From an uncultured Veillonella sp. (GTDB lineage: Bacteria > Bacillota > Negativicutes > Veillonellales > Veillonellaceae), in contig CAAFUD010000261.1 of assembly GCA_900766125.1 (NCBI GenBank), positions 1-55,211 on the forward strand: a stretch of DNA of 55,211 bases, read 5' to 3'. The first letter of the stretch is position 1. The number at the start of each line of letters is the position of its first letter. Made by a program: the position numbers and the translations under genes. Below the pieces are notes generated by a model. The model saw only the letters and a program-made list of their open reading frames with translations, was not told the origin of the DNA and searched no databases. Positions 1,133 through 46,277 of this stretch are shown piece by piece.

Positions 1133-2878
1133 GTGTTAATTATGAATATTACTACGTTAAGTAATTTTAAAGCTCGCATTAATGATATTGAATTTAACAA
1201 TGAACAGGACTTTAATTCTGCATCATTTTTACTAGAAAATATAGAAGAACGCTTTAATATTTCAATCACAGATCCTGATTTTACAAAAGATGTAAAAGAC
1301 TTTGTAGAACTTGCTTCTATTAAAGTTGATAACTTTTCTTATAGTGAATTAGAAAATGCTACAGTTTCATCTATTATGAATGCAACTAAATTATCTGATA
1401 TACAATTTTTAGCAAATGATTATGATGACGGTAATTATAAATGGAACAGTTATATCAATGATAAAGTAAAAGAGCATAGAGGGTATCCATATATTATTGA
1501 TGCTATTACTAGAGAACAATTCAATGCAATTGAATCTAATAATTCTATTGATACATTGTTGACTACTCCATTAAATAATAATTTATCTGTACAAGATAAA
1601 GAAGAGTTGTATGACAATGTAAATGAATATTACTCTAATAATTTTTTAGATGATGATTATGATGACGATTTTGAGTTTTTATATCCTAAAGATAATATTT
1701 ACGATACAGATGTTAATCAGATTGTACCTTCTGTTTTTGAGAAAAAAACAACTATTGGATTAGGTACTTGGGAATCTTGTGAAGAACTATATAATGGTGG
1801 TACTGAAGCGATTCATAAAGCCTTTATTAGTCGTGGTGAAAGTATATATAATGATGATGCATTAGAATCTAATCCAGAACTTAATAAACGGTATATTCCT
1901 CTTGAACGTGAATCATATTCGTATCGTAAATTTATCCTTGAACTAGATACCTATCTTGGTACTAACGATAAAGGCTATTATGTAGATCTTAATACTGGTT
2001 CCATTAATGATAGTCATTTATCCTTTATGAATAATGACATTATTAGTGATTCTAGCCTAGATGGGTATCCTGGTAATGAAGCACTTTACAATTATTATCC
2101 AGTTGCTATTGCTAAAGGGATGGCCACTAATCAAATTGCAGCAGATGGAGATATTCTCACTCAATTACCTGATATTATAGGTGAAACTCAATATAACGAA
2201 TTTAAAAAGGAGTTAGAGCATATTCAAGCTGAATACCCTAATCAAATTGACTATACTATCAATGATAATGGAATTGTTACAGGAATTACCCCATATTATG
2301 GTATTTATAATACTATATACAATCCTGGCACAACGGTAATTACTGATTTAGATCTTAAATATAAAGATAAAATCAATTTGTATCATGTATTAAATGGTAG
2401 AGAAGAACGCCCTATTGCAGCTATTATTACCAATGGCGTATCAAGTCAAGATTTTGAGGGCGAACATTTATTACCTGAAAATTTACGAAATGATGATAGT
2501 AAAATCATTGAGATGACAAAAAAATATGAAAACCTCTTAACTGATGAAGAAAAAAGTGTTTTTGAACATAAGTATAGAAGTGTGGCAGAAACTTTAACAA
2601 ATTCTAATGGTGGTCTTAACTTTTCTAAATTTGATAAAGAAACACAAGCTATGATGGAATCTTATGTTCGTTTAGATAAAGCAGGTCATCTTCCTCGATC
2701 ATTTACAATACGAGATATGGAAAATGTAATTCAATATAATATGGAAGTGAAATTAGAAGGGTTATTAAATCAACGTTCTGAACAAGAACTTTCAAAGAAC
2801 AATCAATTAACTGCCTCTAAAGAAACTCCTAAAATTTCATTCTCTAAACCAAAAGAAAATAAAGGTTTGGAACGATAA
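1133..2878 (+). CDS. Hypothetical acidic 581-aa protein with basic C-terminal tail (KISFSKPKENKGLER)
   Basis: Long ORF with GAGGTG RBS; no family recognised. Confidence 0.7.
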   Translation: MLIMNITTLSNFKARINDIEFNNEQDFNSASFLLENIEERFNISITDPDFTKDVKDFVELASIKVDNFSYSELENATVSSIMNATKLSDIQFLANDYDDGNYKWNSYINDKVKEHRGYPYIIDAITREQFNAIESNNSIDTLLTTPLNNNLSVQDKEELYDNVNEYYSNNFLDDDYDDDFEFLYPKDNIYDTDVNQIVPSVFEKKTTIGLGTWESCEELYNGGTEAIHKAFISRGESIYNDDALESNPELNKRYIPLERESYSYRKFILELDTYLGTNDKGYYVDLNTGSINDSHLSFMNNDIISDSSLDGYPGNEALYNYYPVAIAKGMATNQIAADGDILTQLPDIIGETQYNEFKKELEHIQAEYPNQIDYTINDNGIVTGITPYYGIYNTIYNPGTTVITDLDLKYKDKINLYHVLNGREERPIAAIITNGVSSQDFEGEHLLPENLRNDDSKIIEMTKKYENLLTDEEKSVFEHKYRSVAETLTNSNGGLNFSKFDKETQAMMESYVRLDKAGHLPRSFTIRDMENVIQYNMEVKLEGLLNQRSEQELSKNNQLTASKETPKISFSKPKENKGLER

Positions 2879-2965
2879 TTACATATTATTAGTGGTTGAA
2901 AACGATAAAAAAGCAATGTTTATAAGGCGATAATTAAAAAATAGGATAAAGAGGAATAAAAACAT

Positions 2966-3523
2966 ATGGCTTCTGTAGATAATAAGAATAATAATGAATT
3001 AGATAAATTTTTATTTAGTAATACGATAATAAATCAATTTAGTAGTTATGTAGATGATATTGAAAAGTTTAAAAATTTAGAATCAACGAATCGTTTTTTT
3101 AATAGTATTCTTTGTGTTATTTTACTCATTATGATTTTACATATTTTTATCCATAGTATCAGTGAATATATACCTTTTATATGCATTGCTATAAGTACGG
3201 TAATAGTTTGTTGTAAAATTCAAACTAAAGCAGAATTAACTAACATTGTAAAAGATTCATTTAAACGATACATTATATTACATCTATTAGATCAAAAAGA
3301 AGTTATCAATTTTCCAAATCCTATAGAGTTTACAGGATTTGAATTTGTTAAATCTGTATTAGATGATATACACATATTTGATCCATCAATTTGTATAATT
3401 GAACATATTGGTTATACATCTGATAAACATATAGAATCTGTTACTTTTAGAAGCATTGATTCAGAAAAACTAAGAAAAATCATTAATTTAAATAAATTGG
3501 AACACTTTGAATATATGCCATGA
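2966..3523 (+). CDS. Hypothetical membrane protein (2 TM), paralogue of 3549-4070
   Basis: GAGG RBS; hydrophobic segments; C-terminal half resembles the next ORF. Confidence 0.6.
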   Translation: MASVDNKNNNELDKFLFSNTIINQFSSYVDDIEKFKNLESTNRFFNSILCVILLIMILHIFIHSISEYIPFICIAISTVIVCCKIQTKAELTNIVKDSFKRYIILHLLDQKEVINFPNPIEFTGFEFVKSVLDDIHIFDPSICIIEHIGYTSDKHIESVTFRSIDSEKLRKIINLNKLEHFEYMP

Positions 3524-4149: not shown

Positions 4150-4944
4150 ATGAGAAAAGTCGGATTTGATAAAGCTTTATTTATAGCAGAAAAGATGCGC
4201 CCTGAATTTACTTACAATATGGCTAAATTAGAGGGCAATACAGCAACTTATTCCCAGGTAGAAACTATTGTTCATGGTTTATCTGTATCTGGTCTAAGTA
4301 TGCAAGATATACGACAAGTTGATAATATTGCTCGTGGTTGGAACCTGTTATTAGATGAGTTAAAAAATGGAGATTTTTCTCTATCTAAACAAAATACTAT
4401 TTTCTTAAATATGACTGTGTCTGAAGGAGAAAATAGATTAAATTTTGGTTCCTTTAGAAATGGGCCTGTTGCTATCAATGGTACAGATTATATTCCACCA
4501 ATGCATTTAGATTTACCATTACAATGGGATTCTATGATTAATTCATATAAATCCATTAGTGATCCATTAGAACAATCTATTTTCTTGTATGGAGAGCTTG
4601 CTAAAAATCAATTTTTTGGTGATGGTAATAAAAGAACTGCCTTATTGGTTATGAACGGATGCTTAATTAGCGAAGGATACTGCCCTATTACTATTTCACC
4701 AAATGATAATAAGGAATATCGTGATGTTTTATTAAATTACTATGAGAATTCAGAGGAATATAAACAACAATTTTCTGATTTTATGAAATATCAGCAATTA
4801 AAAGTACTCAAAAAATGGTCATATGATATTGATTTACCAAATACAGAATCTGAATTAGGAAAAACTATTGATGCAAGTAATATAAAAACTAAACCTGCTG
4901 TTAAAATTACTGTTATAAAAAATAAGGATGGTAGAGTTAGATGA
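4150..4944 (+). CDS. Fic/Doc family protein
   Basis: Motif QFFGDGNKRTA (His replaced by Gln), N-terminal YNMAKLEGN; AGGAGG RBS. Confidence 0.85.
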   Translation: MRKVGFDKALFIAEKMRPEFTYNMAKLEGNTATYSQVETIVHGLSVSGLSMQDIRQVDNIARGWNLLLDELKNGDFSLSKQNTIFLNMTVSEGENRLNFGSFRNGPVAINGTDYIPPMHLDLPLQWDSMINSYKSISDPLEQSIFLYGELAKNQFFGDGNKRTALLVMNGCLISEGYCPITISPNDNKEYRDVLLNYYENSEEYKQQFSDFMKYQQLKVLKKWSYDIDLPNTESELGKTIDASNIKTKPAVKITVIKNKDGRVR

Positions 4945-5120: not shown

Positions 5121-5182
5121 TAGGATATATTTATTTGAGTACAAAAGAACAGAGTATAGCACGTCAAAAAGGAGAACTTAAT

Positions 5183-5374
5183 ATGGAATTAAAAACTCTA
5201 AGAAATTCACTTCAAGAAGATATTAATTCTTTTGAATTAGCCCTTAAAACAGGTAAAGATTTAGATATTTGGATTGAAGAATTACAATCTAGTTTAAAAG
5301 CCAATTATTATGGCCATGTTATTGATGAGAATACTTTTAATATTTTATGGAATAAATATTTTGGAGGAAATTAA
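5183..5374 (+). CDS. Small protein (63 aa), candidate antitoxin of the downstream HipA-like kinase
   Basis: ATG at 5183 after AAGGAG; 2 bp from the hipA-like gene. Antitoxin role is inferred from position only. Confidence 0.55.
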   Translation: MELKTLRNSLQEDINSFELALKTGKDLDIWIEELQSSLKANYYGHVIDENTFNILWNKYFGGN

Positions 5375-5376: not shown

Positions 5377-6336
5377 ATGGACTTTACAAATAATCCTATT
5401 GATAAATCTAAAGTATATGGTGGTAAAAATGGTAATAAAATCGCTATATTAATTAATAACGAACCATATATGTTGAAATTTCCGCCTATTAATAATATAA
5501 AAGGACATGAAATATCCTATAAGAATGATTGTATTAGTGAATATATATCGTGTCATATTTATAATGCACTAAATATTCCCGCCCAAGATACTCTTCTCGG
5601 TACATTTTCTATGAGTAATGGAACTCAAAAAATTGTTGTTGCTTGTAAGGATATAACTGAGCCTAATAAAAAGCTTGTAGACTTTGCTTCTCTAAAAAAT
5701 ACTATTATTGATAGTGAACATAATGGATATGGTACAGATTTAGAAGATATATTAAACACCATTAGAGAACAAACTAGAATAGATTCTAGTTTACTAGAAG
5801 AAAGATTTTGGGATATGTTTGTGGTTGATACTCTTACAGGAAACTTTGATAGACATAATGGTAATTGGGGATTCTTAATAGATAATAACAGTAAAGAATG
5901 GTCATTGGCCCCTGTGTATGATTGTGGTTCCACATTATTATCAGCCTCTTCTGATAAACAAAAACAACTTTGCTTAGATAATCAGCAAGAAATGTTAAAA
6001 AGAATATATGAATATCCAACATCAGCTATTTATTATAATGATGCTAAAATCAATATGTATAGATTTCTACAGGAATATGATAATCCTGTATTAGCTAAAT
6101 CATTAAAAAAGATTGTCCCTTTAGTAAACAGTGAACTAATTAATCCAATTATTGATAAAACTCCATATATTAGTGATATTAGTAAAACATTTTATAAAGA
6201 ATTTTTACAAAAACGTCATGAATTAATCTTAGTACCTGCACTAAGTCGGATTAAAAAAAATGAATTATTAAATACTGTTGCTCCATTAAAAATTTCATTG
6301 TCTAAACCAAAAGAGAGAGGAGGATTAGAACGATGA
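5377..6336 (+). CDS. HipA-domain (CtkA-like) Ser/Thr kinase toxin
   Basis: YMLKFP, ISEYISCHIY, GNFDRHNGNWG, LAPVYDCGS kinase motifs. Confidence 0.85.
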   Translation: MDFTNNPIDKSKVYGGKNGNKIAILINNEPYMLKFPPINNIKGHEISYKNDCISEYISCHIYNALNIPAQDTLLGTFSMSNGTQKIVVACKDITEPNKKLVDFASLKNTIIDSEHNGYGTDLEDILNTIREQTRIDSSLLEERFWDMFVVDTLTGNFDRHNGNWGFLIDNNSKEWSLAPVYDCGSTLLSASSDKQKQLCLDNQQEMLKRIYEYPTSAIYYNDAKINMYRFLQEYDNPVLAKSLKKIVPLVNSELINPIIDKTPYISDISKTFYKEFLQKRHELILVPALSRIKKNELLNTVAPLKISLSKPKERGGLER

Positions 6337-7254: not shown

Positions 7255-7310
7255 AAGTGTTCGTAGCACCGTACACGAAGCTACGCAAAGATTGTGTACA
7301 ATTACCAAGT
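7255..7310 (+). ncRNA. Candidate CptI-like pseudoknot antitoxin RNA (single unit)
   Basis: Stem 1 cgtagc(7262-67)/gctacg(7280-85); loop gtacac(7271-76) pairs with gtgtac(7294-99); TATAAT at 7241; directly upstream of a CptN-like ORF. Confidence 0.6.
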
Positions 7311-7325
7311 TGCGTGAGGTGTATT

Positions 7326-7787
7326 ATGAATATCGGTTTCTATTTTATAAAATCTGATTTTTTTAAACTTGTTAACTCTGGATTAGAATGGATGGATTCT
7401 AAGACTAACAAGCATATGTATTTTGTATTACCATTTAAAAATGAATTATGGGCGATCCCGCTATCTAGCCAATATGATAAGTATAAGAATTGGTATAATG
7501 AGGCAAAACAACTTAATAAAAAAAATAGATTTCTTGTGTTTGTTAACGTGATGAATAGAGATGGGGTTCTTCTAATTCAAAACGCTTTTCCTATCAATGA
7601 ATACTTTATTGATAGAGAAGCTTTTGATCATAATAATAAACACTTAACTCTACCTTTAGACCTCATTCAGTTCGTGGAAAAACGGCTAAAACTAATGAAT
7701 ACGTATGAAGAGAAAGGAATATTAAGCTTTCATGCAGATTTAAGCTTAATCCGTAATATTTTACATAAAGATAGCGGTAAACTATAG
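7326..7787 (+). CDS. Type III toxin-antitoxin toxin, CptIN-like endoribonuclease
   Basis: GFYFIKSDFF, LWAIPLSSQYDKYK, LLIQNAFPI motifs; GAGGTG RBS before ATG 7326. Confidence 0.7.
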   Translation: MNIGFYFIKSDFFKLVNSGLEWMDSKTNKHMYFVLPFKNELWAIPLSSQYDKYKNWYNEAKQLNKKNRFLVFVNVMNRDGVLLIQNAFPINEYFIDREAFDHNNKHLTLPLDLIQFVEKRLKLMNTYEEKGILSFHADLSLIRNILHKDSGKL

Positions 7788-8761: not shown

Positions 8762-10360
8762 TTACAATTCTTGACCATGATGAGCCATTTCTTGAATATC
8801 CTCTGCTGTTAATTCTTTAGTCGCAACGAATCCACCCTCATTAGAAATTACAATATTATCTACTTTTCGTTCAATTTTATTAGCAATATTGCCTATAATT
8901 TTAGCTTTATTTAGGCTTGTAGCATATGATTTTTGTTGTGGTCTTTCTTGATTTGCATTAGGTAATTTGTGTTTTTCGTCTATACTTTGTTGTGTTTTAT
9001 TAATATTATCTCGATTATCTATACCATTGTTATTGATAATTATACTCTTGTCCTTTATACGGGCTATTACTGTATCGTTAGGTATAGTATTAAGGTATTG
9101 TAGGATTCTATCATACTTTTTAGTTTTAGCTTGTAATGGTTTAATCTTCCCATATAGCGGTTTAATCTTATTATTGATTTCTTGATTATGTTCAATGATA
9201 GCTTGTTTTTTTTGCTCTAATAAGTCTGAAGGAATCTTAGATTCTAATGTTGCTAAATCTGCTTTAGCTTTATTAAACTTTTCTCTACCATCTACACTTA
9301 ACAGACCTTCTTTTTCTTTCCAAAGAGAGGTTTCAATAATAGATTTTAATGATTTAGCTTTTTTTGAGTACCCTTTTACGATTTGATTTTTGGCCCATGT
9401 TTCAATAGCTTGTTCAGGAATTTGTTCTTTGCGTAATTCTTTTATTTCATTTTGTAGTTGCTTTGCAGCTTCAATATTTTGATGTTTTAAATCACCAAAA
9501 TAATCTTTTAAGTTTACAGCATATACAACATTTTGATTATAAAATTCTTGATATAATTTTTCTTGTTGCTTTCTAACTTCTTTACTCATTTCATTATGAA
9601 TTTTATTAATTTGATCTGGTTCTATATGTTGTTGTAAATTCTTTTCTCTATAATATTGAGCAGCAGGAATTCTACGTTGTGGTTCAACATTATCAAATTT
9701 TGCTGCTTCAGAAAAACGGCCTTCTTCAATGAGGGCCTTTTTTTGATTTTTAAAAGAACGATGGTCAACACGTTCTTCCATATCAAAATCTTTATAGTAT
9801 TTATTCGTTAAATCAGCAGCTCTTTCTCTTAATTTATGTACAGTTGCCTTTTGCATAAATTCACGACTTTTACAATATCCAACTGGAAATCCATCTGTTT
9901 CTGTGTATCGTGTAAAGTGCCACTTTGGATCATCATAAGTACGGTCTTTAGTTAATTCTCTTTCATTGAACATAATATGAACATGAACATTATCATGTTC
10001 AGGGTCTGATGAATCTTTAGAATGAATAGCATAGCTATATGTAAATTTTTCTCCGAATGTTTCTTGGCAAAATTCTTGCACCAAAGATTCATTCGCCCAT
10101 AATGGCAACTCTGATGGTAAGGCCCATGTAATTTCTCTATATGCATTTCCATTTGCTCGTTCATATAGAGATGCTGCTTTCCAATAATGATGAGGGGTAG
10201 GGGCCCAATCTGGCATATTACCAGAACCATAAGCTAAAAGATCTTCACGATTTTTATATGCTCCATCTCGATCAATATAATCAAAGTGTGCGGCTGCATT
10301 TAACTTTGAACCATATTTAGTTTTAGGTTGTGATTTTATATTGAAAGAGTAAGTTGCCAT
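8762..10360 (-). CDS. mobA: MobA/MobL-family (MOBQ) relaxase
   Basis: MATY..., AAAHFDYIDRDG, ERANGNAYREITWALPSEL, YAIH...NVHVHIMFNER, RVDHRSF. Confidence 0.92.
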   Translation of the reverse strand: MATYSFNIKSQPKTKYGSKLNAAAHFDYIDRDGAYKNREDLLAYGSGNMPDWAPTPHHYWKAASLYERANGNAYREITWALPSELPLWANESLVQEFCQETFGEKFTYSYAIHSKDSSDPEHDNVHVHIMFNERELTKDRTYDDPKWHFTRYTETDGFPVGYCKSREFMQKATVHKLRERAADLTNKYYKDFDMEERVDHRSFKNQKKALIEEGRFSEAAKFDNVEPQRRIPAAQYYREKNLQQHIEPDQINKIHNEMSKEVRKQQEKLYQEFYNQNVVYAVNLKDYFGDLKHQNIEAAKQLQNEIKELRKEQIPEQAIETWAKNQIVKGYSKKAKSLKSIIETSLWKEKEGLLSVDGREKFNKAKADLATLESKIPSDLLEQKKQAIIEHNQEINNKIKPLYGKIKPLQAKTKKYDRILQYLNTIPNDTVIARIKDKSIIINNNGIDNRDNINKTQQSIDEKHKLPNANQERPQQKSYATSLNKAKIIGNIANKIERKVDNIVISNEGGFVATKELTAEDIQEMAHHGQEL

Positions 10361-12683: not shown

Positions 12684-13430
12684 TTGACAGATTTTAAAGA
12701 AAAAGGCACTGCCTTAGATCCGTTCCTGAAAGGTAGAGAAGAACACTTCTCATACGTCGAGCGAATCTTAGATAGTGCAAACACATTCAAGAAGATTGCT
12801 GTTGGTGCAACGCTAGTAGCGTTAGTAGCATCTCTATCAGCAGGCTACTTGGCAACACGGAGTGAATATATTCCGTTTATTATTCGTGCAGATAAAGTAA
12901 CGGGTTATACCGATGCTGTAGGCCCTGTTACACAGCAAGAATATAAGCCCACAGAGGCAGAAACAAAGTACTTCTTAACGGACTTTATTAAAAAAGTTCG
13001 TACAGTACCACTTGATCCAGTGGTATATCAAAAGAACTGGAAAGATGCTCAAATATTCTTAACAGAAGGAGCAGCTAAAAAGCTTAATGCTATTAGTGAA
13101 TCACAAGGCCATTTTAGTAAGCTTGGCTCTTCTACAGTAGAACCTACTGTGCTTGGTATTACTCGCTTGTCTAACTCGGATAATACATATCAAATTCGTT
13201 GGCAAGAAGTAGATTACGGTATTAATAGTGGTCAAGGCACTCAACAAAATTACATTGGTACGTTTACTATTAAAACTGGTGAATTAGGAACTGAAGCTGA
13301 TTTGTATAAGAATCCACTTGGCATTAAAATTACAGATATTTCTTTCAGTCTTGAAAACGCTGCGCAAAGCAGTGAACCTGCTAAAAAAGCTAATACAGCA
13401 CAACAAAACCAGAAAGCAGGTGACAAATAA
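12684..13430 (+). CDS. trbF: TrbF/VirB8-family T4SS protein
   Basis: N-terminal TM, VRTVPLDPVV...W, YQIRWQE, KNPLGIKITD. Confidence 0.85.
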   Translation: MTDFKEKGTALDPFLKGREEHFSYVERILDSANTFKKIAVGATLVALVASLSAGYLATRSEYIPFIIRADKVTGYTDAVGPVTQQEYKPTEAETKYFLTDFIKKVRTVPLDPVVYQKNWKDAQIFLTEGAAKKLNAISESQGHFSKLGSSTVEPTVLGITRLSNSDNTYQIRWQEVDYGINSGQGTQQNYIGTFTIKTGELGTEADLYKNPLGIKITDISFSLENAAQSSEPAKKANTAQQNQKAGDK

Positions 13431-14569
13431 TGCAATCAAAAGCTCGTAAATTATGTATTGCTATGTCACTTGCAACTATGTGTATAGGTGGTACTTCGTT
13501 TGCTGCTATTGAACCTGGTTATATTACACCTCATGATAGTAATTTAACAGGCTCCAATGTTGTCTATACGTATGATTCTAACAATCAATTTAAAGTGCGT
13601 GGTAAACTAGGGTATTTAACGGACTTAACACTTGGTCGTAATGAAAAACTAACTAGCATCGTTGCAGGTAATACTGATGATTGGAAAGTATCAACGGCTG
13701 TAGTTGATCAAACACCTCATGTATACTTAAAACCTGTAGTGAAAGAAGCTAAAACTACAAACTTGATTGTTAATACTAATAAACGTTCGTATCGTTTTAT
13801 TGTTAGACAAGATGAGTACTATGATGATGTTGTATCTTTTAACAATCTAACGACTGCTGTAGATTCAACGACTACCATTAGTCAAAGTAGTACTCAAAAA
13901 GATTCTACTGGAACAGTAGAGCAAATCAATCGTGATTATAAGTATGAAATAGCACAAAATGTACGAAAAACGTTAATTCCTAATAGTATTTGGGATGATG
14001 GTATTAAGACATATATTGAAGTGCCTACAACAAACATTAGAAATTTACCTGTAGTATATTCTGTTGATAAAAAAGGCAAATTATCTATGGTAAATAGTCG
14101 TTTGCAAGGTCATTATATTGTGATTGATACCGTGTTAGCTCGTTTACAGCTACGTTTTAAAACAGATTCGTATTTAACTGTTGTCAATAATAAAGAAGCA
14201 GGTATTAAACCTGTTAAGGTGAAAGAGTTAAATCAAACACTTAATCAAGGTGGTATGTCTGCTGTTTCTATTGATGAAGTAGGTATTCCTCTTCAATCGG
14301 TAAATACAGAACAAATTAAGACTGATAAGCAAAGTAAATCGTCTAATTTAGTTCAAGTTAAACAGGCATTACAACAATCTATTAAAGATACAGTTAATCA
14401 CGCTAAACTAGATGTACAAGGTAAACCACGTATTATTATTACTCGTGATAGTGATAATAATCCTGTTAGCAATGTAACTAGTGTTGCAACAACAAACTCT
14501 AATCATTCAATTGATTGGGTTCCTCTAAAAGATAGAATTGCTAATCTACAGAAAGGAGGAACTAAATAA
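13430..14569 (+). CDS. trbG: TrbG/VirB9-family T4SS protein
   Basis: Signal peptide, TNLIVNTNKRSY, IWDDGIKTYI, VNSR; position in operon. Confidence 0.85.
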   Translation: MQSKARKLCIAMSLATMCIGGTSFAAIEPGYITPHDSNLTGSNVVYTYDSNNQFKVRGKLGYLTDLTLGRNEKLTSIVAGNTDDWKVSTAVVDQTPHVYLKPVVKEAKTTNLIVNTNKRSYRFIVRQDEYYDDVVSFNNLTTAVDSTTTISQSSTQKDSTGTVEQINRDYKYEIAQNVRKTLIPNSIWDDGIKTYIEVPTTNIRNLPVVYSVDKKGKLSMVNSRLQGHYIVIDTVLARLQLRFKTDSYLTVVNNKEAGIKPVKVKELNQTLNQGGMSAVSIDEVGIPLQSVNTEQIKTDKQSKSSNLVQVKQALQQSIKDTVNHAKLDVQGKPRIIITRDSDNNPVSNVTSVATTNSNHSIDWVPLKDRIANLQKGGTK

Positions 14570-15915
14570 TGTCTATTAGAGATATGTTTAATAAGGTATT
14601 AGGTAAACGTGAACCTGATGAATTTACTAATTTTGATTCTGAAACAGAAGCTGAATTAGGGGATGCATCTCGTAATGAACATAAACCCGATGAGGAACAA
14701 CTTAATGATACAGAAAGCTTTGATGATGATGTAGAAGCCGCTACATTCTCTAATGATGATACTAAACCTGCTGTTAAAGGCTTTAAAAAAGGTGCTGTAT
14801 ATGGTGCTATAGGTCTTATAGCGTTTGGTTCAGCAGCTGCCATGGTTATGCATAACATGGATGGCGGTAATAAACCTAATCCTAATCAGTCTAGCTCTTC
14901 CGTTGGCATTAGTGCTAATGGTGGTTCTGTAGCAGGCCCTGATTTAGGATTTGATTCATATGCTTCAATGGGGCAATATGATAATGAAAAAAAATTAGAT
15001 GCTGCATCTAAAAACAAACCAGGGGCCCCTGGTTCTGTAAACACTGTAGGTACACAATCTGTACCACAAGCAAGCGGTAATAATACTGTTAGACAAGTTC
15101 CTAACCGTGTAGGGACTAGTTCTTATAATGCTTCTGCTCCTACTGGCAGCAGTTCGCCTAATTATCAATCTGGTAATGTTAGTGGTGGCTCTATTACAAG
15201 TCGTAATAATCCATATGCAAGTGCTATTGCCTTTGCATTAAGTGGTGGGAATGCTATTACAGATAGCACTAGTGGTGATGCTAGTTCTGATTCTGGCTCT
15301 AGTATTTCAACTAACACACCTGATTATAGTAGCTATACAACGGCTGATCGTGTATTGCTAACTGGTACGTTAGTACCTGTAACACTTATTACAGGTATTG
15401 ATTCTTCACTTAATGGCTCTGTAACCGCACAAGTTCGTGAAAATGTATATGATTCAATAACGGGTTCCTCTATTCTTATCCCTGCTGGTTCTCGTCTAAT
15501 TGGTGAATATGATGGTAGTGGAATGAATGCAGGTCGTGTATCTGTTAAATTTACTCGGATTATGTTCCCTGATGGTAATAGTGTTGCTTTAAACAATTCA
15601 TTAGGTGTTGATGCAATGGGCTTTGGTGGTGTAAAAGATTTATATTCTGAACATACTGGTAAAGCTGTTGGCGCATCCTTTATCACTAGTCTATTAGCAG
15701 GTATTGCAGGTTCTTCTAGTGATGGAAGTGGTTCTGATAATCGCTCATCTGGCCAAGAAGCCATTAATCATGCAATTTCTAATGTGTTAAACACTGGCAA
15801 TGAAATTGTTAAGAAAAAATTGGAAGTTGGTGCAACGGCTATTATTCGTCCAGGATTTGAATTCAATGTGATGTTAAATTCTGATTTAGCACTTGAACCT
15901 TATTATGGTGAATAA
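14569..15915 (+). CDS. trbI: TrbI/VirB10-family T4SS protein
   Basis: LITGIDSSLNG.VTAQVRENVYDS.TG..ILIPAGSRLIGEY, IRPGFEFNV. Confidence 0.92.
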   Translation: MSIRDMFNKVLGKREPDEFTNFDSETEAELGDASRNEHKPDEEQLNDTESFDDDVEAATFSNDDTKPAVKGFKKGAVYGAIGLIAFGSAAAMVMHNMDGGNKPNPNQSSSSVGISANGGSVAGPDLGFDSYASMGQYDNEKKLDAASKNKPGAPGSVNTVGTQSVPQASGNNTVRQVPNRVGTSSYNASAPTGSSSPNYQSGNVSGGSITSRNNPYASAIAFALSGGNAITDSTSGDASSDSGSSISTNTPDYSSYTTADRVLLTGTLVPVTLITGIDSSLNGSVTAQVRENVYDSITGSSILIPAGSRLIGEYDGSGMNAGRVSVKFTRIMFPDGNSVALNNSLGVDAMGFGGVKDLYSEHTGKAVGASFITSLLAGIAGSSSDGSGSDNRSSGQEAINHAISNVLNTGNEIVKKKLEVGATAIIRPGFEFNVMLNSDLALEPYYGE

Positions 15916-15917
15916 TC

Positions 15918-18011
15918 ATGATTAGGGTTTTATTAGCCCTGATTACATTATGTATAGCGTTAGCTTGTTCTACTCAATTATTAGCCTCTTATGTTCATTA
16001 TGATCCATTAATAGGGCAACCTTTATTTACTATCGGTGCAACGCCTTATTATTGGTTTTTCAAATATTTAGTCTGGATTGCTTTATTTGGTAAATATGTA
16101 CCTTCATTAGTAATGAAGTCTGCACTACCTTTATTAGTTTGGATTGTTGCTATGTTTGGTGTTAGTTTTGCTAACATGAAAAAACCAGTAAAAGATTATC
16201 ATGGTAATGCATCCTATGCTGAATTTGCTGACATTAAAAAAATGGGATTCTTCCCTAAATCTGGTGTTATTTGCGGGATTCAAGAAACTGGATTACTCCG
16301 TAAAGAAGCATTGACTAATGTATTAGGAACATTTATTTCGCCTCAAAAAATTAATTCATGGCTAATGACATGGGGTAAAAAACTCGGTTTATACAAATAC
16401 AAGTATATTAAGCATGATGATAAGCATCATATGATTGTCTTAGCACCAACTCGTTCTGGTAAAGGCGTTGGCTTAATTGTTCCAACACTATTAGGGGAAT
16501 GGAAAGGTTCTTGTATTGTAACCGATATTAAAGGTGAAAACTGGGGGATAACCGCAGGCTATCGTCAAAAAGTAATGGGGCAAAAGGTTATAAAATTTGA
16601 ACCTACAGCATCTGATGGCACGTCTGCACGATTTAATCCGTTTAATGAAGTTCGATTTGGTACAAAATATGAAATTAGTGACATTCAGAACGTCGCAGGG
16701 ATTATTGTTGACCCTGAAGGGAAAGGCGATTTGGATCACTGGAAATTATCTGCTCGTAACTTGCTTGTAGGATTGATATGTCATATGCACTATGCACATA
16801 TTATTAATCCTACAGAAAATGCACCTCTAACGTTAAATCAATTAGCTAGTACGTTAAAAAATTCACTAGTACCAGATCCAGATAATCCTGGAAACTATAA
16901 AGCCTTAGGTTTTTTTGAATCTGTTGAATCGTTAACTCAATATAAACATTGGCCAGAAGAAGGGATGTCAATGGAAACGATTGATGCTGACCGTAATAGT
17001 AAAACTTATGGGGAACGCAAAATGATTACTGTCAATACAGAACATATGCGTACTTTATATCCAGAAGCTACTAATCTAACTGTTCCAGGTCTTAATCAAA
17101 CGCATCCTATTGCGTTTGAATCGTTTATTGATATTGCTTCAAAAGCGGAAAATGAACGGGCTTCCGTTGTTTCTACCGCTAATGCCTTATTAACCCTATA
17201 TTCTGATCCTGTTCTTGCTATGAATACATATGAAAGTGATTTCACATTGTATGACATTATGAACTATAAGGATCCTGTTACGTTATATCTAATTACTCCG
17301 CCTTCTGATATTAAACGTATTCAACCATTATTCCGTTTACTTGTTGAAATGATTGTTCGCCATAATACTCGAGATATGAAATTTGAAGATGGTAAACAAG
17401 TTGATACCTTTAAGCATAGGTGTTTATTGTTACTTGATGAATTTCCTGCACTGGGTCGTATGGATACCTTTGAAGAACAGTTAGCATACATTGCGGGGTA
17501 TGGATTAAAAGCGTTTATGATATGTCAAGGTTTACCACAGTTACAAAAAATTTACACAAAAGAAAATTCTATTGTAACTAACTGTCATATTCAAATCTTT
17601 TACGCTCCGAATGATACGGTTACAGCCGATGAAATTGAAAAGCAGCTTGGTAAATATACTGAAGAAGTTGAAACTTGGTCTAAACAACCTGGATTCTTTC
17701 AAGGTAAATCCCATAGTAATAGCTATATTGCAAAAAGTTTAATGACGGCTGACGAATCAAAACGGATGGGCGATAAAGAATTAATTTTTATGACTGGCGA
17801 AAAGCCTATTTTGACTGAAAAAGTAAAGTATTATATGGATTCGTATTTTAGTTCTCGTGTTATGAATGCACCTGCTAAATCAGATGTTATTCCAAAATTA
17901 AACTCTCCTAATACACAACCTACAACTCTCACACAAACACAACCAACAAAACATGAAACTAAACCATCCTCTAATACGGTAGATGATATTGTAATTGAAA
18001 AAATAATTTAG
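15918..18011 (+). CDS. traG: TraG/VirD4 type IV coupling protein
   Basis: Walker A APTRSGKGVGLIVPTLL, DIKGENW, LLLDEFPALG. Confidence 0.95.
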   Translation: MIRVLLALITLCIALACSTQLLASYVHYDPLIGQPLFTIGATPYYWFFKYLVWIALFGKYVPSLVMKSALPLLVWIVAMFGVSFANMKKPVKDYHGNASYAEFADIKKMGFFPKSGVICGIQETGLLRKEALTNVLGTFISPQKINSWLMTWGKKLGLYKYKYIKHDDKHHMIVLAPTRSGKGVGLIVPTLLGEWKGSCIVTDIKGENWGITAGYRQKVMGQKVIKFEPTASDGTSARFNPFNEVRFGTKYEISDIQNVAGIIVDPEGKGDLDHWKLSARNLLVGLICHMHYAHIINPTENAPLTLNQLASTLKNSLVPDPDNPGNYKALGFFESVESLTQYKHWPEEGMSMETIDADRNSKTYGERKMITVNTEHMRTLYPEATNLTVPGLNQTHPIAFESFIDIASKAENERASVVSTANALLTLYSDPVLAMNTYESDFTLYDIMNYKDPVTLYLITPPSDIKRIQPLFRLLVEMIVRHNTRDMKFEDGKQVDTFKHRCLLLLDEFPALGRMDTFEEQLAYIAGYGLKAFMICQGLPQLQKIYTKENSIVTNCHIQIFYAPNDTVTADEIEKQLGKYTEEVETWSKQPGFFQGKSHSNSYIAKSLMTADESKRMGDKELIFMTGEKPILTEKVKYYMDSYFSSRVMNAPAKSDVIPKLNSPNTQPTTLTQTQPTKHETKPSSNTVDDIVIEKII

Positions 18012-18019
18012 GTGATAAT

Positions 18020-18373
18020 ATGGCTAAAAAAAATACGCTATTTACAGCGTTAAAAAAATCTATTGATGCAAAAAAACGATTAGAAAAACATGATAGTGCG
18101 ATAAATAAACATGAACAAGAGATTGAACGTCTTAAAAGTTTAATCATAAAAGATAGTTTAATAGCTGAAGCTACAGGGGCTAATGAAATGTTTTCAGAAT
18201 TTGGCTTTGAGAGCGTTGAAATTCGTCTTGGGGCGTTATTATATGCTGATGAGTATGTAAAGGCCTCTGACGACGAAAATAGGGCCTTAGATGAGTTCTA
18301 TACGAAAGGAAAGGCGTACTTAGAAACTCTATCCTCTGAACCATCTGAAGATATTAATTCAATTGGTGAATAA
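18020..18373 (+). CDS. Small conjugation protein, possibly TraC/TraD-like relaxosome accessory
   Basis: Coiled-coil N-terminus and LGALL...F..KGK..L pattern; inside the tra operon. Confidence 0.45.
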   Translation: MAKKNTLFTALKKSIDAKKRLEKHDSAINKHEQEIERLKSLIIKDSLIAEATGANEMFSEFGFESVEIRLGALLYADEYVKASDDENRALDEFYTKGKAYLETLSSEPSEDINSIGE

Positions 18374-18374
18374 G

Positions 18375-19397
18375 ATGACTGAAACAAATACACAAGAAGC
18401 TATTAATAAAAAAGTTAATAGTATGCTTGAATTTTCTTTTGGTCGATTATGGCCTATATTACAACAAGATACAATTGGGGAAGTGTATGTTAATGAAGAT
18501 GGCTATGTATTTGTTAATGATTTAACCAAAGGGAAACAAAAAACAGATATATACTTATCTCCGTCTGAATCTAAAGTTCTTATTGAGGCGGTGGCAGGTG
18601 CTGTTAATGAAGTGATTAATAATGATCGTCCACATTTGGGGTGTGAATTGTATTCGTTAAATGCTCGTTTTCAAGCACAGTTACCACCGCTAGTTAGGAA
18701 TCCAACATTTATGATTCGTAAAAAAGCATCTACTATATTCTCGTTTGAAGAATATATTCAAAAGGGGTTTATTACAAAAGAAGGCGCTGATTATTTAGTT
18801 AACGCCGTAAAAGAACATAAAAATATATTAGTAACAGGCGGGACTGGTACAGGGAAAACTACATTTCTTAACACATTATTGAAATGTGTTGAATTATATA
18901 CTCCATATGATCGAACGGTTATCTTAGAGGATTTAAGCGAATTACAATCCAATATTAATGATTGTTTACGAATGCAAACTAGAGTAGATACTGATCCGAA
19001 TAAAAGCGTTACGATGCAAACATTGATTTGGCTATCAATGCGTAATTCTCCGAATCGAATTATCGTTGGGGAAGTTCGTGATGGTTCTGCTTATGATTTG
19101 TTAAAAGGATGGAATACTGGCCATCCAGGTGGATTTGGAACAACTCATGCAAATGGGGCATTAGAAGGATTAGATCGTTTGGAATCATTAATTTATGAAA
19201 ATCCAACGGCTAAAGGCAATTTTAGACAATTGTTAGGTCAAGCTGTCAATATAATTGTTGATATTGGCCGTATTGATATTCCTAACGGCCCTTCTAAACG
19301 CTTTATTCGTGACATTATTGAAGTGAAGGGGTTTAACCGTCATACAGAATCATATGACACAAGTATTATTTATCATAAGGAAGGAAGTGAACCATGA
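18375..19397 (+). CDS. trbB: TrbB/VirB11 ATPase
   Basis: GGTGTGKTT, RIIVGEVRDG, WNTGHPGG.GTTHAN. Confidence 0.95.
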   Translation: MTETNTQEAINKKVNSMLEFSFGRLWPILQQDTIGEVYVNEDGYVFVNDLTKGKQKTDIYLSPSESKVLIEAVAGAVNEVINNDRPHLGCELYSLNARFQAQLPPLVRNPTFMIRKKASTIFSFEEYIQKGFITKEGADYLVNAVKEHKNILVTGGTGTGKTTFLNTLLKCVELYTPYDRTVILEDLSELQSNINDCLRMQTRVDTDPNKSVTMQTLIWLSMRNSPNRIIVGEVRDGSAYDLLKGWNTGHPGGFGTTHANGALEGLDRLESLIYENPTAKGNFRQLLGQAVNIIVDIGRIDIPNGPSKRFIRDIIEVKGFNRHTESYDTSIIYHKEGSEP

Positions 19398-19771
19398 TGA
19401 GCCGTCACAAGTATACTCATAAAGATATTAAAAATCCGTTTGAGCTTTATGAGCCAGATGTTGACGATATAAGCGTAACTCTACCCACCTCTGATGAATC
19501 TGAACAGGATGAAACAATTGATGTTGAAAAAACAGATAAACCTGTTAAAGATATGACGAAAGAAGAAAAATTCAAATACTATGCGGAAAAGCGTGTGAAT
19601 ACAATCCTAAAAGAATTAGCAGGATTAAGTGATATGGCCTCTACTTATGCAGGTGTTTACGATAAACCTATGGTAGATGCTATGATGATGACTATTTCAT
19701 CTGCTACTAATTCCACTAAGGAAATATTTCAGAAACGGGCCCATGTATTACCAACATTTTCATTTGATTAA
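19394..19771 (+). CDS. Hypothetical protein
   Basis: ATGA-coupled to trbB; EKF...AEKRVN motif. Confidence 0.6.
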   Translation: MMSRHKYTHKDIKNPFELYEPDVDDISVTLPTSDESEQDETIDVEKTDKPVKDMTKEEKFKYYAEKRVNTILKELAGLSDMASTYAGVYDKPMVDAMMMTISSATNSTKEIFQKRAHVLPTFSFD

Positions 19772-19796
19772 TGCTGATTTAAGAAAGGATTCTTTT

Positions 19797-20168: not shown

Positions 20169-20210
20169 CATGATGTGAATATAAGCCTATAAGGCAGTTA
20201 GGTGTAGTGA

Positions 20211-20513: not shown

Positions 20514-20522
20514 GGAGGCAGG

Positions 20523-20789: not shown

Positions 20790-20815
20790 GACTACTATAG
20801 AAAGGTGTTTATTAT

Positions 20816-24158: not shown

Positions 24159-24168
24159 GAGGGGTTAC

Positions 24169-25452: not shown

Positions 25453-25463
25453 GGTGATAGCTT

Positions 25464-26936: not shown

Positions 26937-26951
26937 AAAGGAGGCTCCTTT

Positions 26952-28383: not shown

Positions 28384-28413
28384 ATTTATGCGCAGCATTT
28401 CAATTAAGTATGA

Positions 28414-28509
28414 TGATGAGGTCGTAAAGCACGCCTCGTTAAACAAAAAAGGCTTGATTGTTGATGAGGTCGTAGAGCGCGCCTCGTTAAATAAAAAAAG
28501 CTCGATTGA
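28414..28509 (+). ncRNA. Type III antitoxin RNA (TenpI-like): two 48-nt pseudoknot repeats
   Basis: Units start at 28414 and 28462; gagg(t)cgt/Rcgcctc stem; loop aagc/gctt versus gagc/gctc compensatory pairing. Confidence 0.85.
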
Positions 28510-28511
28510 TG

Positions 28512-28541
28512 AAAAGCCCCCTTAATTAAGGGGGCTTTTAT
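28512..28541 (+). terminator. Terminator between antitoxin repeats and toxin gene
   Basis: aaaagcccccttaattaagggggctttt palindrome; canonical type III TA layout. Confidence 0.85.
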
Positions 28542-28556
28542 CGTATGGGAGAATCT

Positions 28557-29039
28557 ATGAAATTTATATTTTTAACAAAGGATTATTTTAATCGACATCC
28601 TTCATCTGAATTTCCTGAAATGTTACGCAAATCAGATCGTCCTTATGTTCAACTTACGATTCCTTGTAACCATCAACTATGGGCGGTTCCTTTGCGGTCT
28701 TATATCAATCATGAATTTGCTTTTTGGTCTAATAAAAAAGAATTTTGTGGATTAGATTTTACTAAGGCCGTTCCAATTGAATTAAAAGATATAGACACAA
28801 TGCATTCACCGATTATTAGGCGCCATGAATTTAATGCATTGAAAGGAAAAGATTATCGTGTAACGCAACGATTTAAACATTTTATTAAAAAGTTTGATCA
28901 TGCCAAGTTACATCCTACTCTTCCTGATAGCAAGGTTCTTTTAAAATATAGTACATTACAATATTTTGAAAAAGAACTAGAACAAAAAAAGAAGATTAAG
29001 CTTACTATTTCAAAACAAAACAGTACACTTAGCCTATAA
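28557..29039 (+). CDS. Type III toxin-antitoxin toxin, TenpIN-like
   Basis: MKFIFLT, DRPY, WAVPLRS.I.H, GLDFTKAV, KYSTLQYF; preceded by repeats and a terminator. Confidence 0.85.
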   Translation: MKFIFLTKDYFNRHPSSEFPEMLRKSDRPYVQLTIPCNHQLWAVPLRSYINHEFAFWSNKKEFCGLDFTKAVPIELKDIDTMHSPIIRRHEFNALKGKDYRVTQRFKHFIKKFDHAKLHPTLPDSKVLLKYSTLQYFEKELEQKKKIKLTISKQNSTLSL

Positions 29040-37882: not shown

Positions 37883-37895
37883 CCACATATTTGGG

Positions 37896-38129: not shown

Positions 38130-38185
38130 GATTGATACAGAAAGCCATACTATAATCATTATTTTATTAGAAAGAAGGTGAATAT

Positions 38186-40672: not shown

Positions 40673-40831
40673 ATGATGACAGAAAGAAAAACAATTCAAT
40701 TAATTAATGAGGATACAGGAGAATTAGTCAATTCACCTGATAAGCTATTCATTTCTGAAAGTTCATTAGATGGTATTTCACCAGATGATTTTGAAATGGA
40801 TGTGGAGGATGAAGAACATGGAGATGAGTAA
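40673..40831 (+). CDS. 52-aa highly acidic protein (not in the ORF track)
   Basis: AGGAGG RBS; MMTERKTIQLINEDTGELVNSPDKLFISESSLDGISPDDFEMDVEDEEHGDE*; overlaps the ardC start. Confidence 0.6.
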   Translation: MMTERKTIQLINEDTGELVNSPDKLFISESSLDGISPDDFEMDVEDEEHGDE

Positions 40832-43172
40832 ACAAAGTACATCTGGAATTAATAAAATTGAAGCTAAACGTCAAGAAGTAATTGATTATATCTTGACGGA
40901 AATTAATAATGGTAATCCTCATGTCTTTAATAACCCTAACCACCCATCTTTATTTGAACAATACAATTTTAAAACCGATAAAACATATAGCGGAATGAAT
41001 CGGTTTATATTAGCCGTTTCAGCTAGTTTGGAAGGGTATAAAGATCCTCGTTGGTTAACTTATAAGCAAGCAAAAGAGTTAGGGTATTCTGTAAAAAAAG
41101 GTACGCATGGTACAACGTTAGAATATTGGGAACGCATTCCTGTAAAAATGGATAAACTTGATAAGGATGGAAATCCAGTTCTCGATGAAAATGGTAAACC
41201 CGTTCAGGTTACTAGAACTAGAGAAGATGGTACACCAGTGATGCGTTGGATGGGTAAACCATTTACTGTTTTTAATGGCGAACAGATTAATGGTATTCCA
41301 CCTTATGAACGCCAACCTATGACAGAAGAACAACGTATCAAAGAATTAGAATCTATTCTTAATCATAGTGAAGCCCCTATTCATTATGATAGTTTAGAGG
41401 CTAATTATTACCAAAGAAAAACAGATACGATTCATTTACGGCCAAAAGATGACTTTAAATCTATGGATCAACTCTATGCAACGGCACTACATGAAATTGC
41501 TCATAGTACACAACATCCTAGTCGGTTAAATCGTCAATATATGGAATCTTCTAACCCATTAGAAGAATTACAAAATTACGCTAGAGAAGAAGTCGTTGCT
41601 GAATTTACAGCGGCTATGTTAAATGCTAAGTATAATCTACCGTATTCAGAACGAATGGGAAAAGATAATTCTACATCGTATATTGAAGGTTGGCAGCAAG
41701 TATTTAATGAAAGCCCATTAGAACTTATTGAAGCCTTAAAAAAAGCAGAACAAGCTGCTACGTATATTGAAAATAATATGCTCGTTCTTGAACAAGAACA
41801 AACAGAGCAACTAGAACAATCCCACTCTCTAAATCAATACACTTTAGATGATTTAGAAGTTCATTTTGATTGGGCTGAAGGAATGGTTACTGATAAGGAT
41901 GGTAAAAGTTATACACGTATTGGTGTACTACCATCTAAACTATCTGACTTAGGTTCAGATACTGGTAATTACTATTCTGATGATTTGATTTTAAAAGGCA
42001 AAGCAGCTCAACAATTTTTAACTGATGCCGCTCGTCAAGATTATTTTTACTCTGAACTTGGACATGCTAAATGTTCATTTACTATTAAAGTCAAAGACTT
42101 TGAATTTGGTGATCGATTCGACTTAGGGGATAGTTATATTAAAAGTGCTAATTTAAACGGTAAAAAAGAAGTTGGTGGTATTGAATACTTTAATAATTTT
42201 CTAGTAAAGACTTTTGATGTAGACCCTCATACATTAGAAAATTTAGTAACGCAAGAGCAACAATTGATTGCTGAAGGCAAATTACCTTCTATCACTAATT
42301 GCCCTAATGGACAAATTATTACTAATGATATGAACCAGGATAATCTGATTCCCTCTTCAAAAAAAGAGAATACAGTAAAATTTGATAAAAACTTTGCAAT
42401 TAGTTTACGACATAAAGAAGGGTTCTTATGCCGTAATACTAATATGATTGTTCTTGGTGGTGGTACATCCTTTGATTATCTATTGCAGGATACGCCAGAA
42501 AAAATGATTGGCCCAGATGATGGCTATAGAGAGTATGGTGGACATTTTTATGCTTTAGATCACGATCCTGAAAGTCCTAACTTATATAAAGGCGATTATG
42601 CCATTCAGTTAATGAACGATATTGTTTTAGAAGATATGACGGTTCATTTAGTAAATGCCAATAGAACCATTACAATTCCAGATGGAACTGGCTTTGATTC
42701 ACAAAATCCAACTAATGTACGTAGTTGTTTAGGTGTAGTCGATAAATTAGGAATTAATTTCCATATTATTGATAAAAACGGTGAACTTCATACGTTTAAA
42801 AATCGTATTGATTTAGGTGATTTAGATACTATCTCTAAAACGCCAATGCTTGACGTTTTAAAATCAATGGAGAACTGGACTAGTGTTAAATTAGAAGGAT
42901 TATCTGATGATGTTCATGCTATGGTTGAAGAACTAGAAGATAGACTGAAACGCAATGAACTACCGTCCCCTTCTGTTCAAACTAACCCTAAAATTTATAC
43001 AGAAAAATTACAAGCACTTTATAATTCACATTCTAACCCTGAAAAATATGCAGAAGCATTAAAGCCTGTTATGGAAATGTTGAATGTAACACAAACTAAG
43101 GACTTATCTCAAAAGCCTAAAGTTGGTTTATCTATTTCTAAACCTAAAGGAAAATCTGGCTTAGAACGCTAA
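40818..43172 (+). CDS. ardC: ArdC-family antirestriction protein (ssDNA-binding plus zincin-like domain) with long C-terminal extension
   Basis: YSGMN, DPRWLTYKQA, VKKG..G, VFNGEQI.GIP, LHEIAHST.HPSRLNR, YAREEVVAE, SYIEGW. Confidence 0.88.
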   Translation: MEMSKQSTSGINKIEAKRQEVIDYILTEINNGNPHVFNNPNHPSLFEQYNFKTDKTYSGMNRFILAVSASLEGYKDPRWLTYKQAKELGYSVKKGTHGTTLEYWERIPVKMDKLDKDGNPVLDENGKPVQVTRTREDGTPVMRWMGKPFTVFNGEQINGIPPYERQPMTEEQRIKELESILNHSEAPIHYDSLEANYYQRKTDTIHLRPKDDFKSMDQLYATALHEIAHSTQHPSRLNRQYMESSNPLEELQNYAREEVVAEFTAAMLNAKYNLPYSERMGKDNSTSYIEGWQQVFNESPLELIEALKKAEQAATYIENNMLVLEQEQTEQLEQSHSLNQYTLDDLEVHFDWAEGMVTDKDGKSYTRIGVLPSKLSDLGSDTGNYYSDDLILKGKAAQQFLTDAARQDYFYSELGHAKCSFTIKVKDFEFGDRFDLGDSYIKSANLNGKKEVGGIEYFNNFLVKTFDVDPHTLENLVTQEQQLIAEGKLPSITNCPNGQIITNDMNQDNLIPSSKKENTVKFDKNFAISLRHKEGFLCRNTNMIVLGGGTSFDYLLQDTPEKMIGPDDGYREYGGHFYALDHDPESPNLYKGDYAIQLMNDIVLEDMTVHLVNANRTITIPDGTGFDSQNPTNVRSCLGVVDKLGINFHIIDKNGELHTFKNRIDLGDLDTISKTPMLDVLKSMENWTSVKLEGLSDDVHAMVEELEDRLKRNELPSPSVQTNPKIYTEKLQALYNSHSNPEKYAEALKPVMEMLNVTQTKDLSQKPKVGLSISKPKGKSGLER

Positions 43173-45351: not shown

Positions 45352-45437
45352 AATGATTAATAAGCAAAATAATTAACCAATAAATATATTAATATTTTTA
45401 TTGATTTATCTATTAAACTATTGCATAGGAGATATAA

Positions 45438-46277
45438 ATGTCCTCATTAATTGATAAACAACAAGATTTTAAAGGGTCTATTAACGAAATACCTTTTGAA
45501 CGTGAAGAGGTATTTGATGCAACAGCTTCTATTGTCAATGCGATTGAACATAGATGGCCTATTACCTGTTCAAAAGAAACCATAGAGGCGATTAAAGGAT
45601 ATGTGGAAGGACATGAGGCCTTACATCCATCCTTCTCTTTCAAAAAATTTGAACGAGAAAATACAAATCGTATTGCGTATACAACTGAACCTAAAGAAGT
45701 ATGGCTTAGTTATGAACGGTCTGATTACCTTAAAGAAGCAGGTACAACATTACCATTAGCGTTAACTGCATCTCTTACTAAAGATCAAGAAGCTGTTCAA
45801 GACTTTGAACAAGCAATGGATGCCTGGGAAAAAGAAAAAGAGATTAAAGGTGAACAAAAGAAAGAAGCATACAAAGAACTTACAGAAGAAGAAGCCTTAA
45901 AATTAGTTGCTTCTAATGGTACTGAATTATTATATTTGCCTGATAAATATCGTAATAACGAAAAAATTGTATCGGTAGCTATCTCTAACGATGAAGATGC
46001 GTTCCGTTATGCAGGGACATCTGCTCGTGATAATGACCGTTTAGCTAGACAAGCTATTAATGCTGATCCAGATAATATTAAGTATCTGGGGCAAACGCTA
46101 CGTAATGACCCTGATTTATATCAAATGGCCATCGAACGTGATAATGACCTTATTAAAGATATTCCTGTGGCCATGCAGCATAATGCAACGATTGAAAAGA
46201 TTATTGCTAAAGATAATCGCCGTCAACTTGGTCTTACTATAAAAAAAGCCAATGAAGGAGCTGAATTGACACGATGA
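45438..46277 (+). CDS. Hypothetical protein with DUF4116-like repeats
   Basis: Repeated ..R(N/D)N..(I/L)...A(I/V) units in the C-half. Confidence 0.6.
   Translation: MSSLIDKQQDFKGSINEIPFEREEVFDATASIVNAIEHRWPITCSKETIEAIKGYVEGHEALHPSFSFKKFERENTNRIAYTTEPKEVWLSYERSDYLKEAGTTLPLALTASLTKDQEAVQDFEQAMDAWEKEKEIKGEQKKEAYKELTEEEALKLVASNGTELLYLPDKYRNNEKIVSVAISNDEDAFRYAGTSARDNDRLARQAINADPDNIKYLGQTLRNDPDLYQMAIERDNDLIKDIPVAMQHNATIEKIIAKDNRRQLGLTIKKANEGAELTR

Follow-up and report, generated by a model that had tools for sequence, protein, structure and literature searches.

A shared C-terminal tail on unrelated proteins of a Veillonella-type conjugative plasmid, a candidate signal for type IV secretion

Why do proteins that share no other recognizable similarity, all encoded on one mobile element, end in almost the same residues? 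The question is raised by a DNA stretch of 55,211 nt from an uncultured Veillonella sp. (assembly GCA_900766125.1, contig CAAFUD010000261.1, positions 1 to 55,211; hereafter the window), which is a 55-kb Veillonella-type conjugative plasmid with a type IV secretion system (T4SS) of the VirB/VirD4 kind. An earlier note on this DNA had quoted basic tails on six of its proteins, and all six C-termini were recovered when they were re-read from the window sequence. The description of their owners as toxin and anti-defence proteins holds by family for four of the six, whereas the other two, an orphan protein and a DUF4116 protein, are of unassigned function. The six proteins and the secretion genes encoded with them are as follows.

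1133..2878 (+): orphan of about 578 amino acids (aa), acidic and mostly helical, without a Pfam or NCBIfam family or a fold match; core gene of the plasmid family; strong tail KISFSKPKENKGLER at 2831-2878
4150..4944 (+): Fic-family protein (Pfam Fic); weaker tail VKITVIKNKDGRVR at 4900-4944
5377..6336 (+): HipA-like kinase of the CtkA family (Pfam HipA_C; PDB 3akj); strong tail KISLSKPKERGGLER at 6289-6336
28545..29039 (+): TenpN type III toxin, of an RNase family (NF047358, 115.4 bits against a cut-off of 90, residues 10-145); weak tail IKLTISKQNSTLSL at 28995-29039
40770..43172 (+): ArdC, an 800-aa polyvalent protein with ArdC-N and zincin domains (Pfam ArdcN, MPTase-PolyVal); strong tail GLSISKPKGKSGLER at 43125-43172
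45438..46277 (+): DUF4116 protein (Pfam); weaker tail LGLTIKKANEGAELTR at 46227-46277
12684..28350 (+): VirB/VirD4 conjugative cluster (Pfam) with VirB8, B9, B10, VirD4, B11, two B2, B3, B4, B5, B6, an SLT-B6 protein, and an S26 peptidase
15918..18011 (+): VirD4/TraG coupling protein (PF02534, E 3.5e-102), the presumed reader of the tail

The tail consists of a short hydrophobic-alternating stretch, a basic linker, and G-L-E-R at the free end. The orphan, the kinase, and ArdC are mutually unrelated, yet their 15-residue tails are near-identical. A [GS]LER terminus, a pattern picked post hoc, is found in 3 of 50 open reading frames (ORFs) of the window and in 0 of the remaining 1824 ORFs of the bin (completeness 72%). 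With a C-anchored tail score over 18 residues, the three pairs within this trio took ranks 1-3 of 1128 window pairs (scores 58, 51, and 49), values attained in 4 of 150,000 pairs drawn at random from the host and in 0 of 5000 shuffles. Pairs involving the Fic, DUF4116, or TenpN tail scored 11-22 (host-pair fraction 0.0014-0.044), each of them marginal singly, and ranks 4-6 of the window pairs also fell entirely among the six tailed proteins. The last 20 residues of Fic, the kinase, TenpN, and ArdC carry a net charge of +3 to +6, and in the predicted model of the orphan, the one protein modelled (pLDDT 61.5), the tail is poorly ordered and has no secondary structure (residues 559-578 below 50). 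Two further proteins of the plasmid do not share the tail.

7257..7787 (+): CptN-like protein (NF047359, 81.5 bits, below the cut-off of 90)
8762..10360 (-): MobA/MobL (MOBQ-like) relaxase (Pfam, NCBIfam), with the C-terminus HHGQEL

The CptN-like protein serves as an internal negative (tail scores -7 to 11); its gene has no repeat array upstream and is kept in 29 sister-plasmid loci, and it is possibly a disarmed or repurposed toxin.

The codons of the tail point to selection on the peptide rather than on the DNA. Over the last 15 codons, the proportion of synonymous differences (pS) exceeded that of non-synonymous differences (pN) in 15 of 15 cross-family tail pairs, and within the orphan/kinase/ArdC trio 11 of 15 codons agree at their first and second positions and 4 of 15 at the third. 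Similarity between the tails ends at the stop codon. Two kinases with 36% identity alternate in the slot before a resolvase gene, and in one such pair all 15 tail residues are the same, with six synonymous and no non-synonymous changes. The last codons of the kinase tail do overlap the resolvase start, and its Gly-Gly codons also form the likely ribosome-binding site of that gene (GGAGG, 8 nt before the start). This site cannot explain the tails of ArdC and the orphan, because neither has an overlapping downstream gene in the window. Among orphan homologues, 73 of 75 end in [LI]ER, and the tail is kept past a variable linker down to 47% identity; the last 24 residues of the DUF4116 protein are identical in 19 of 20 sister-plasmid copies. 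Taken with the comparisons to homologues given next, these results mark the tail as a peptide under selection and, for Fic, TenpN, and ToxN, as an add-on.

If the tail belongs to the T4SS, it should be missing from homologues in T4SS-free contexts, as the earlier note had reasoned; this was borne out for Fic, TenpN, and the type III toxin ToxN, but less cleanly for the kinase. None of three chromosomal Veillonella Fic copies (57-58% identity) has the tail. They end just before the tail position, and no conjugation gene was detected around them in the 15-60 kb fetched. The VirD4-linked copy in G393 is tailed, a copy adjoining a resolvase is ambiguous, and five distant copies do not match the tail. 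All nine TenpN copies outside the plasmid family, none with VirD4 nearby, end at the core; 32 database matches to TenpN comprised 7 tailed proteins, 18 that end at the core, one with an acidic extension, and 6 that are chimeric or partial. For ToxN, an Arg tail was found in four of four VirD4-linked copies versus 0 of 16 others, some of these on short contigs (two further broken copies gave no ORF match), and a relative at 83% stops before the tail. Upstream repeat arrays were present for all six tailed type III toxins examined. The kinase tally covers 31 copies (the best match per genome plus G004, with a broken G393 copy left out); in all seven intact copies that lie no more than 50 kb from VirD4, the protein is extended and ends in Arg. 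The cargo extensions are about 17-33 residues long.

Related elements carry tails of their own. The Megamonas plasmid NZ_CP048628.1, whose VirD4 is 45% alike, has the version KQKI[VIT]MKF...R on its Fic, its kinase, its CptN, and the C-terminal half of its ArdC. A comparison of 12 VirD4 elements of Negativicutes assigned cargo families by BLAST with seeds that lacked the tail, and excluded the near duplicates G004, G257, and G292, one broken kinase, and the N-terminal half of an ArdC. Arg is the last residue in 21 of the 24 kinase, Fic, type III toxin, and ArdC proteins on these elements and in 8 of the 150 proteins of machinery and maintenance. The cross-family tail score averaged 28 within elements (20 pairs) versus 9.6 between them (183 pairs), a difference reached in 0 of 20,000 permutations, although 15 of the 20 within-element pairs come from two elements, on both of which the result leans, and p values from these permutations are overstated because kin are not independent. 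Same-family pairs across different elements gave a mean of 11.5. On these scores the tails follow the element, not the protein family. With related plasmids marking these protein types by a version of their own, the tail is likely an address label for the mating channel. Derivation from the relaxase end was considered and is not supported for the Veillonella-type plasmid by either the tail scores or the element comparison; a resemblance between the ends of relaxase and cargo does exist in one MOBP element and in some elements of the Selenomonas family.

A degenerate DNA pattern of the tail, which by design finds only near copies with an AT-rich Leu codon, was run over metagenome contigs and returned 82 stretches (78 loci read), corresponding to 73 distinct reading-frame ends. 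This plasmid family accounts for 57 of them, one without flanking marker genes, in five protein families (ArdC, two kinases, the orphan, and a 276-aa protein), and the other 16 are the ends of frames no longer than 46 residues, on contigs unrelated to it. ORF clustering of 63 family loci added two proteins with tail variants, a 136-aa protein ending in KISFSKSKEKSRLER and a canonical Fic ending in ISITLPSIKGKSDLKL. Copies of VirD4 at 94-97% identity occur at six loci, in assemblies labelled Veillonella (three), Gemella (two), and Firmicutes (one). In PLSDB, one Negativicutes relative was found among the 30 VirD4 matches listed, and the Fic matches were distant (below 60%).

We therefore lean, with some confidence, towards the view that the tail is a substrate signal for export by the plasmid's own VirD4/VirB machine into recipient bacteria. 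VirD4 or an adaptor would recognize the tail, and the tailed proteins would cross with or ahead of the DNA during mating; a 117-aa acidic ORF after virD4, present in some elements only, was considered as a candidate adaptor. For ArdC and the two proteins of unassigned function, the purpose would likely be establishment of the plasmid in the recipient, while delivered toxin-family proteins would stall or poison a recipient to which the incoming plasmid does not bring the antitoxin. Two antitoxin candidates lie beside tailed toxin-family genes.

28411..28545 (+): TenpI-type RNA antitoxin, recognized by its repeat/hairpin layout of two 48-nt repeats and a terminator-like hairpin
5183..5374 (+): 63-aa ORF without tail and without a family match, directly 5' of the kinase, which it precedes in five of five gene orders containing the kinase; antitoxin candidate by inference only

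Because the antitoxin of a type III system is an RNA and the small ORFs preceding the kinases are tail-less, a delivered toxin would go unopposed until the plasmid is expressed, a form of the addiction put forward for VbhT (PMC5675462). TenpN scores above its curated cut-off and has tandem repeats and a terminator upstream, and the kinase resembles CtkA over its full length (PDB 3akj, E 6.6e-78 over residues 2-291) with intact catalytic motifs NFDRHNGN and PVYDCG. Canonical AMP-transferring Fic proteins have the motif HxFx(D/E)GNGRxxR with a catalytic His; the window Fic and its subfamily alike read QFFGDGNKR, with Gln in that position, and the window protein may thus not adenylylate. A bolder extension, which we put forward only tentatively and would sooner doubt than believe, is that Negativicutes elements run a join-or-die strategy, in which each element's own 15-residue tag injects ToxN/CptN/TenpN, CtkA-like kinases, and Fic, the antitoxins stay behind, and only cells expressing the element survive; Helicobacter pylori CtkA would then be a host-directed offshoot.

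Some observations touch the genes just described. At 5121-5176, 5' of the 63-aa ORF, lies an 89% copy of the resolvase 5' end, a cassette-insertion scar. A small acidic ORF (51+ aa, 40673-40830) stands directly before ArdC, as does an acidic 47-aa ORF in the Megamonas plasmid. Genes for a Bsp6I-like restriction endonuclease and a C5 methylase follow 3' of TenpN at 29271-30880. In related elements, second copies of the relaxase 3' end adjoin toxin cassettes (L001 11014-11344; regions of G393 and G215), hinting that such cassettes were gained by recombination at the relaxase end. Atlas matches of the orphan to DUF4316/DUF3849 scored 0.79 and are a lead only.

Precedents for parts of this proposal exist. 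The closest is the tfs3 integrative and conjugative element of H. pylori, where the 27 terminal residues common to CtkA, Fic, and PZ39 are absent or divergent in homologues, and where deletion of the 23 terminal residues abolishes the T4SS-dependent effect (PMC5536186). Both elements thus combine the same kinase family, a Fic, and an acquired basic tail on unrelated proteins with VirB/VirD4; the tfs3 tail, however, ends in KRRR and has been studied as host-directed, whereas the Negativicutes plasmid tags ArdC and type III RNase toxins, in element-specific variants across a family of elements. The earlier note had named Bartonella VbhT instead, which is apt insofar as it shows a similar recruitment of toxin-antitoxin (TA) toxins, although tfs3 is nearer. 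Transfer of VbhT has been shown, BID-fused TA toxins have been recruited repeatedly, and recipient addiction has been proposed (PMC5675462). Like these, the tailed proteins include TA toxins with a C-terminal addition on a conjugative T4SS element, and several tailed type III toxins adjoin the relaxase 3' end, as vbhAT does. Yet BID is a folded, relaxase-derived domain, whereas the extensions here are short, with a linear motif of about 15 residues that the relaxase end does not match, and the Veillonella-type tail is known from sequence comparison. Substrates of Agrobacterium VirB/VirD4 have positively charged C-terminal signals (PMC5536186, PMC11288057). The tail is likewise basic, unstructured, at a free C-terminus, and with a hydrophobic residue near the end, but it is Lys-rich, ends in G-L-E-R, and conserves a hydrophobic-alternating stretch that lies 11-15 residues before the terminus. 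It occupies the extreme C-terminus of unrelated proteins encoded beside VirD4/VirB, with net positive charge and, in the single model, no order; it probably works like a C-terminal T4SS signal and is a candidate member of that class. Signals for T4SSs are varied, and pKM101 transfers SrnB and CcdB (PMC11288057). A KEKE motif has been proposed, without validation, as the T4SS signal of Campylobacter fetus Fic toxins (PMC5651007); it too is a shared C-terminal motif on T4SS-linked Fic toxins, but a different one and in one protein family only. The order of repeat array, terminator, and toxin is that of ToxIN, CptIN, and TenpIN systems (PMC3401426), and polyvalent proteins joining ArdC-N and MPTase on T4SS elements, as here, were predicted to be delivered early (PMC5512222).

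Export thus finds partial support in the comparative tests (add-on, peptide selection, and element-specific sharing), but several results weigh against it, in addition to the two limits on the permutation test and the Gln that replaces the catalytic His of Fic. The relaxase, the sole certain substrate of the machine, has no such tail (scores -2 to 8), and relaxases of closer elements end in GWS[LM]. TenpN lacks the final Arg. Of the 24 kinases that have no VirD4 gene within 50 kb, 11 carry a short extension ending in Arg; several of them lie in chromosomal surroundings, with clpX, guaA, murA, or rhamnose genes nearby, and a few adjoin relaxase or ArdC remnants. Of 119 database homologues of the kinase, taken without genomic context, 76 end in Arg and 58 in Glu-Arg, while one has the long tail form of the Veillonella-type plasmid. 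One element in which VirD4 was not detected has a Fic ending in SKITITKSIDRGLER. ArdC of R388 is needed in the recipient, not in the donor (PMC7213743). Finally, an operator-like motif, TTTATTGWTTT, occurs in seven copies against 0.91 expected (at 1082, 6959, 32870, 40614, 43216, 45397, and 52191), preceding the orphan, the ORF at 7013, UvrD, the ArdC operon, the topoisomerase, DUF4116, and LemA; standing before three tailed genes, it could mean that these are repressed in donors. The sites may form an establishment regulon. A palindromic operator pattern gave 0 matches, the enrichment being that of the half-site alone.

Several of these points would suit a tail that never leaves the cell and is instead a docking or degradation motif, bound by a plasmid or host partner such as a regulator, a relaxosome or replisome part, or a protease, for example in positioning or clearing establishment proteins and toxins after zygotic induction. 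A tail-less relaxase, the enriched operator-like motif upstream of tailed and other genes, the action of R388 ArdC from within the recipient, and the persistence of short Arg tails far from VirD4 are all in keeping with such a role. A host protease, however, does not readily account for tails that differ between elements yet are common within each; the tagged families also match described or proposed T4SS cargo, and close relatives away from VirD4 have no tail. We consider this account, including its zygotic example, unlikely, though it deserves more weight than the two that follow.

That the common ends arise as a side effect of DNA, namely a cassette recombination site or the ribosome-binding site of the next gene read in frame, could be argued from the 83% DNA identity of two tails over 46 nt, from the GGAGG within the kinase tail, and from the nature of the region, a zone of swappable cassettes; the same idea is raised for tfs3 in PMC5536186. 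The conserved first and second codon positions, the uniform excess of pS over pN, the halt of similarity at the stop codon, and the ArdC and orphan genes with no overlapping neighbour largely refute it, and we give it very little credence. Equally improbable, in our estimate, is a signal aimed at animal host cells, the target suggested for H. pylori CtkA. The kinase is closely homologous to CtkA, the effect of CtkA on epithelial cells is described in that paper as requiring both its tail and the tfs3 T4SS, and the plasmid encodes a YadA-like adhesin; but ArdC bears the same tag, as do type III toxins whose antitoxins are bacterial RNAs, a relaxase is linked to the machine, and no eukaryote-like domains were found.

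The rest of the window is in keeping with a mobile element. A 51-nt terminal repeat on the single contig indicates a circle of about 55,160 bp, and a gene for the YadA-like adhesin, with a C-terminal SLH domain, crosses the circular junction (53081-55211 plus 1-1013). Pfam matches identify Rep3, ParA, the MobA/MobL relaxase, the VirB/VirD4 cluster, a topoisomerase, a primase, and several defence genes. A search for oriT with a MOBQ nick motif gave one match in the window against 1.68 expected, and there were zero Rfam matches in the window. The region 35760-38750 holds a gene for a 567-aa TnpB/Cas12-like protein followed by a CRISPR-like array, both of which are present in only some sister plasmids; the array has repeats of about 36 nt and 30-nt spacers with a 66-nt period and is interrupted by an 88-aa ORF, and its spacer at 38064-38093 matches contig C90:20-42 of the same bin in 23 of 23 positions. 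An RRXRR+HNH (IscB-like) gene at 47241-48479 is missing from the G004 sister plasmid. A leader motif, TGAATATAA[AG]CCC..GAGG, directly precedes start codons at 7804, 20176, 32880, and 52903, with similar sequences before 35760, 39529, and 43267.

A literature search, weak on subscription papers, found nothing about a comparable Negativicutes tail or about type III toxins as cargo delivered by a T4SS. In the tfs3 and VbhT papers, a shared basic tail on unrelated proteins of a T4SS element and the transfer of a TA toxin are close precedents; what is new is that the setting is Negativicutes, that each element has its own tail, and that the candidate cargo includes all three families of type III RNase toxins. 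Substrate signals of T4SSs are usually too vague for prediction, whereas this tail is a sharply conserved, element-specific linear tag that could be used to list candidate cargo among proteins of unassigned function. The pairs that occur in nature (Fic, ToxN, and kinase each with and without the tail; the Veillonella versus the Megamonas tag) are matched and well suited to the study of how a coupling protein selects its cargo. If the export reading is true, conjugative toxin delivery, shown mainly for VbhT, would gain type III RNase toxins as cargo and would reach into diderm Firmicutes living in the mouth and gut, and type III systems would gain a role beyond phage defence and plasmid maintenance.

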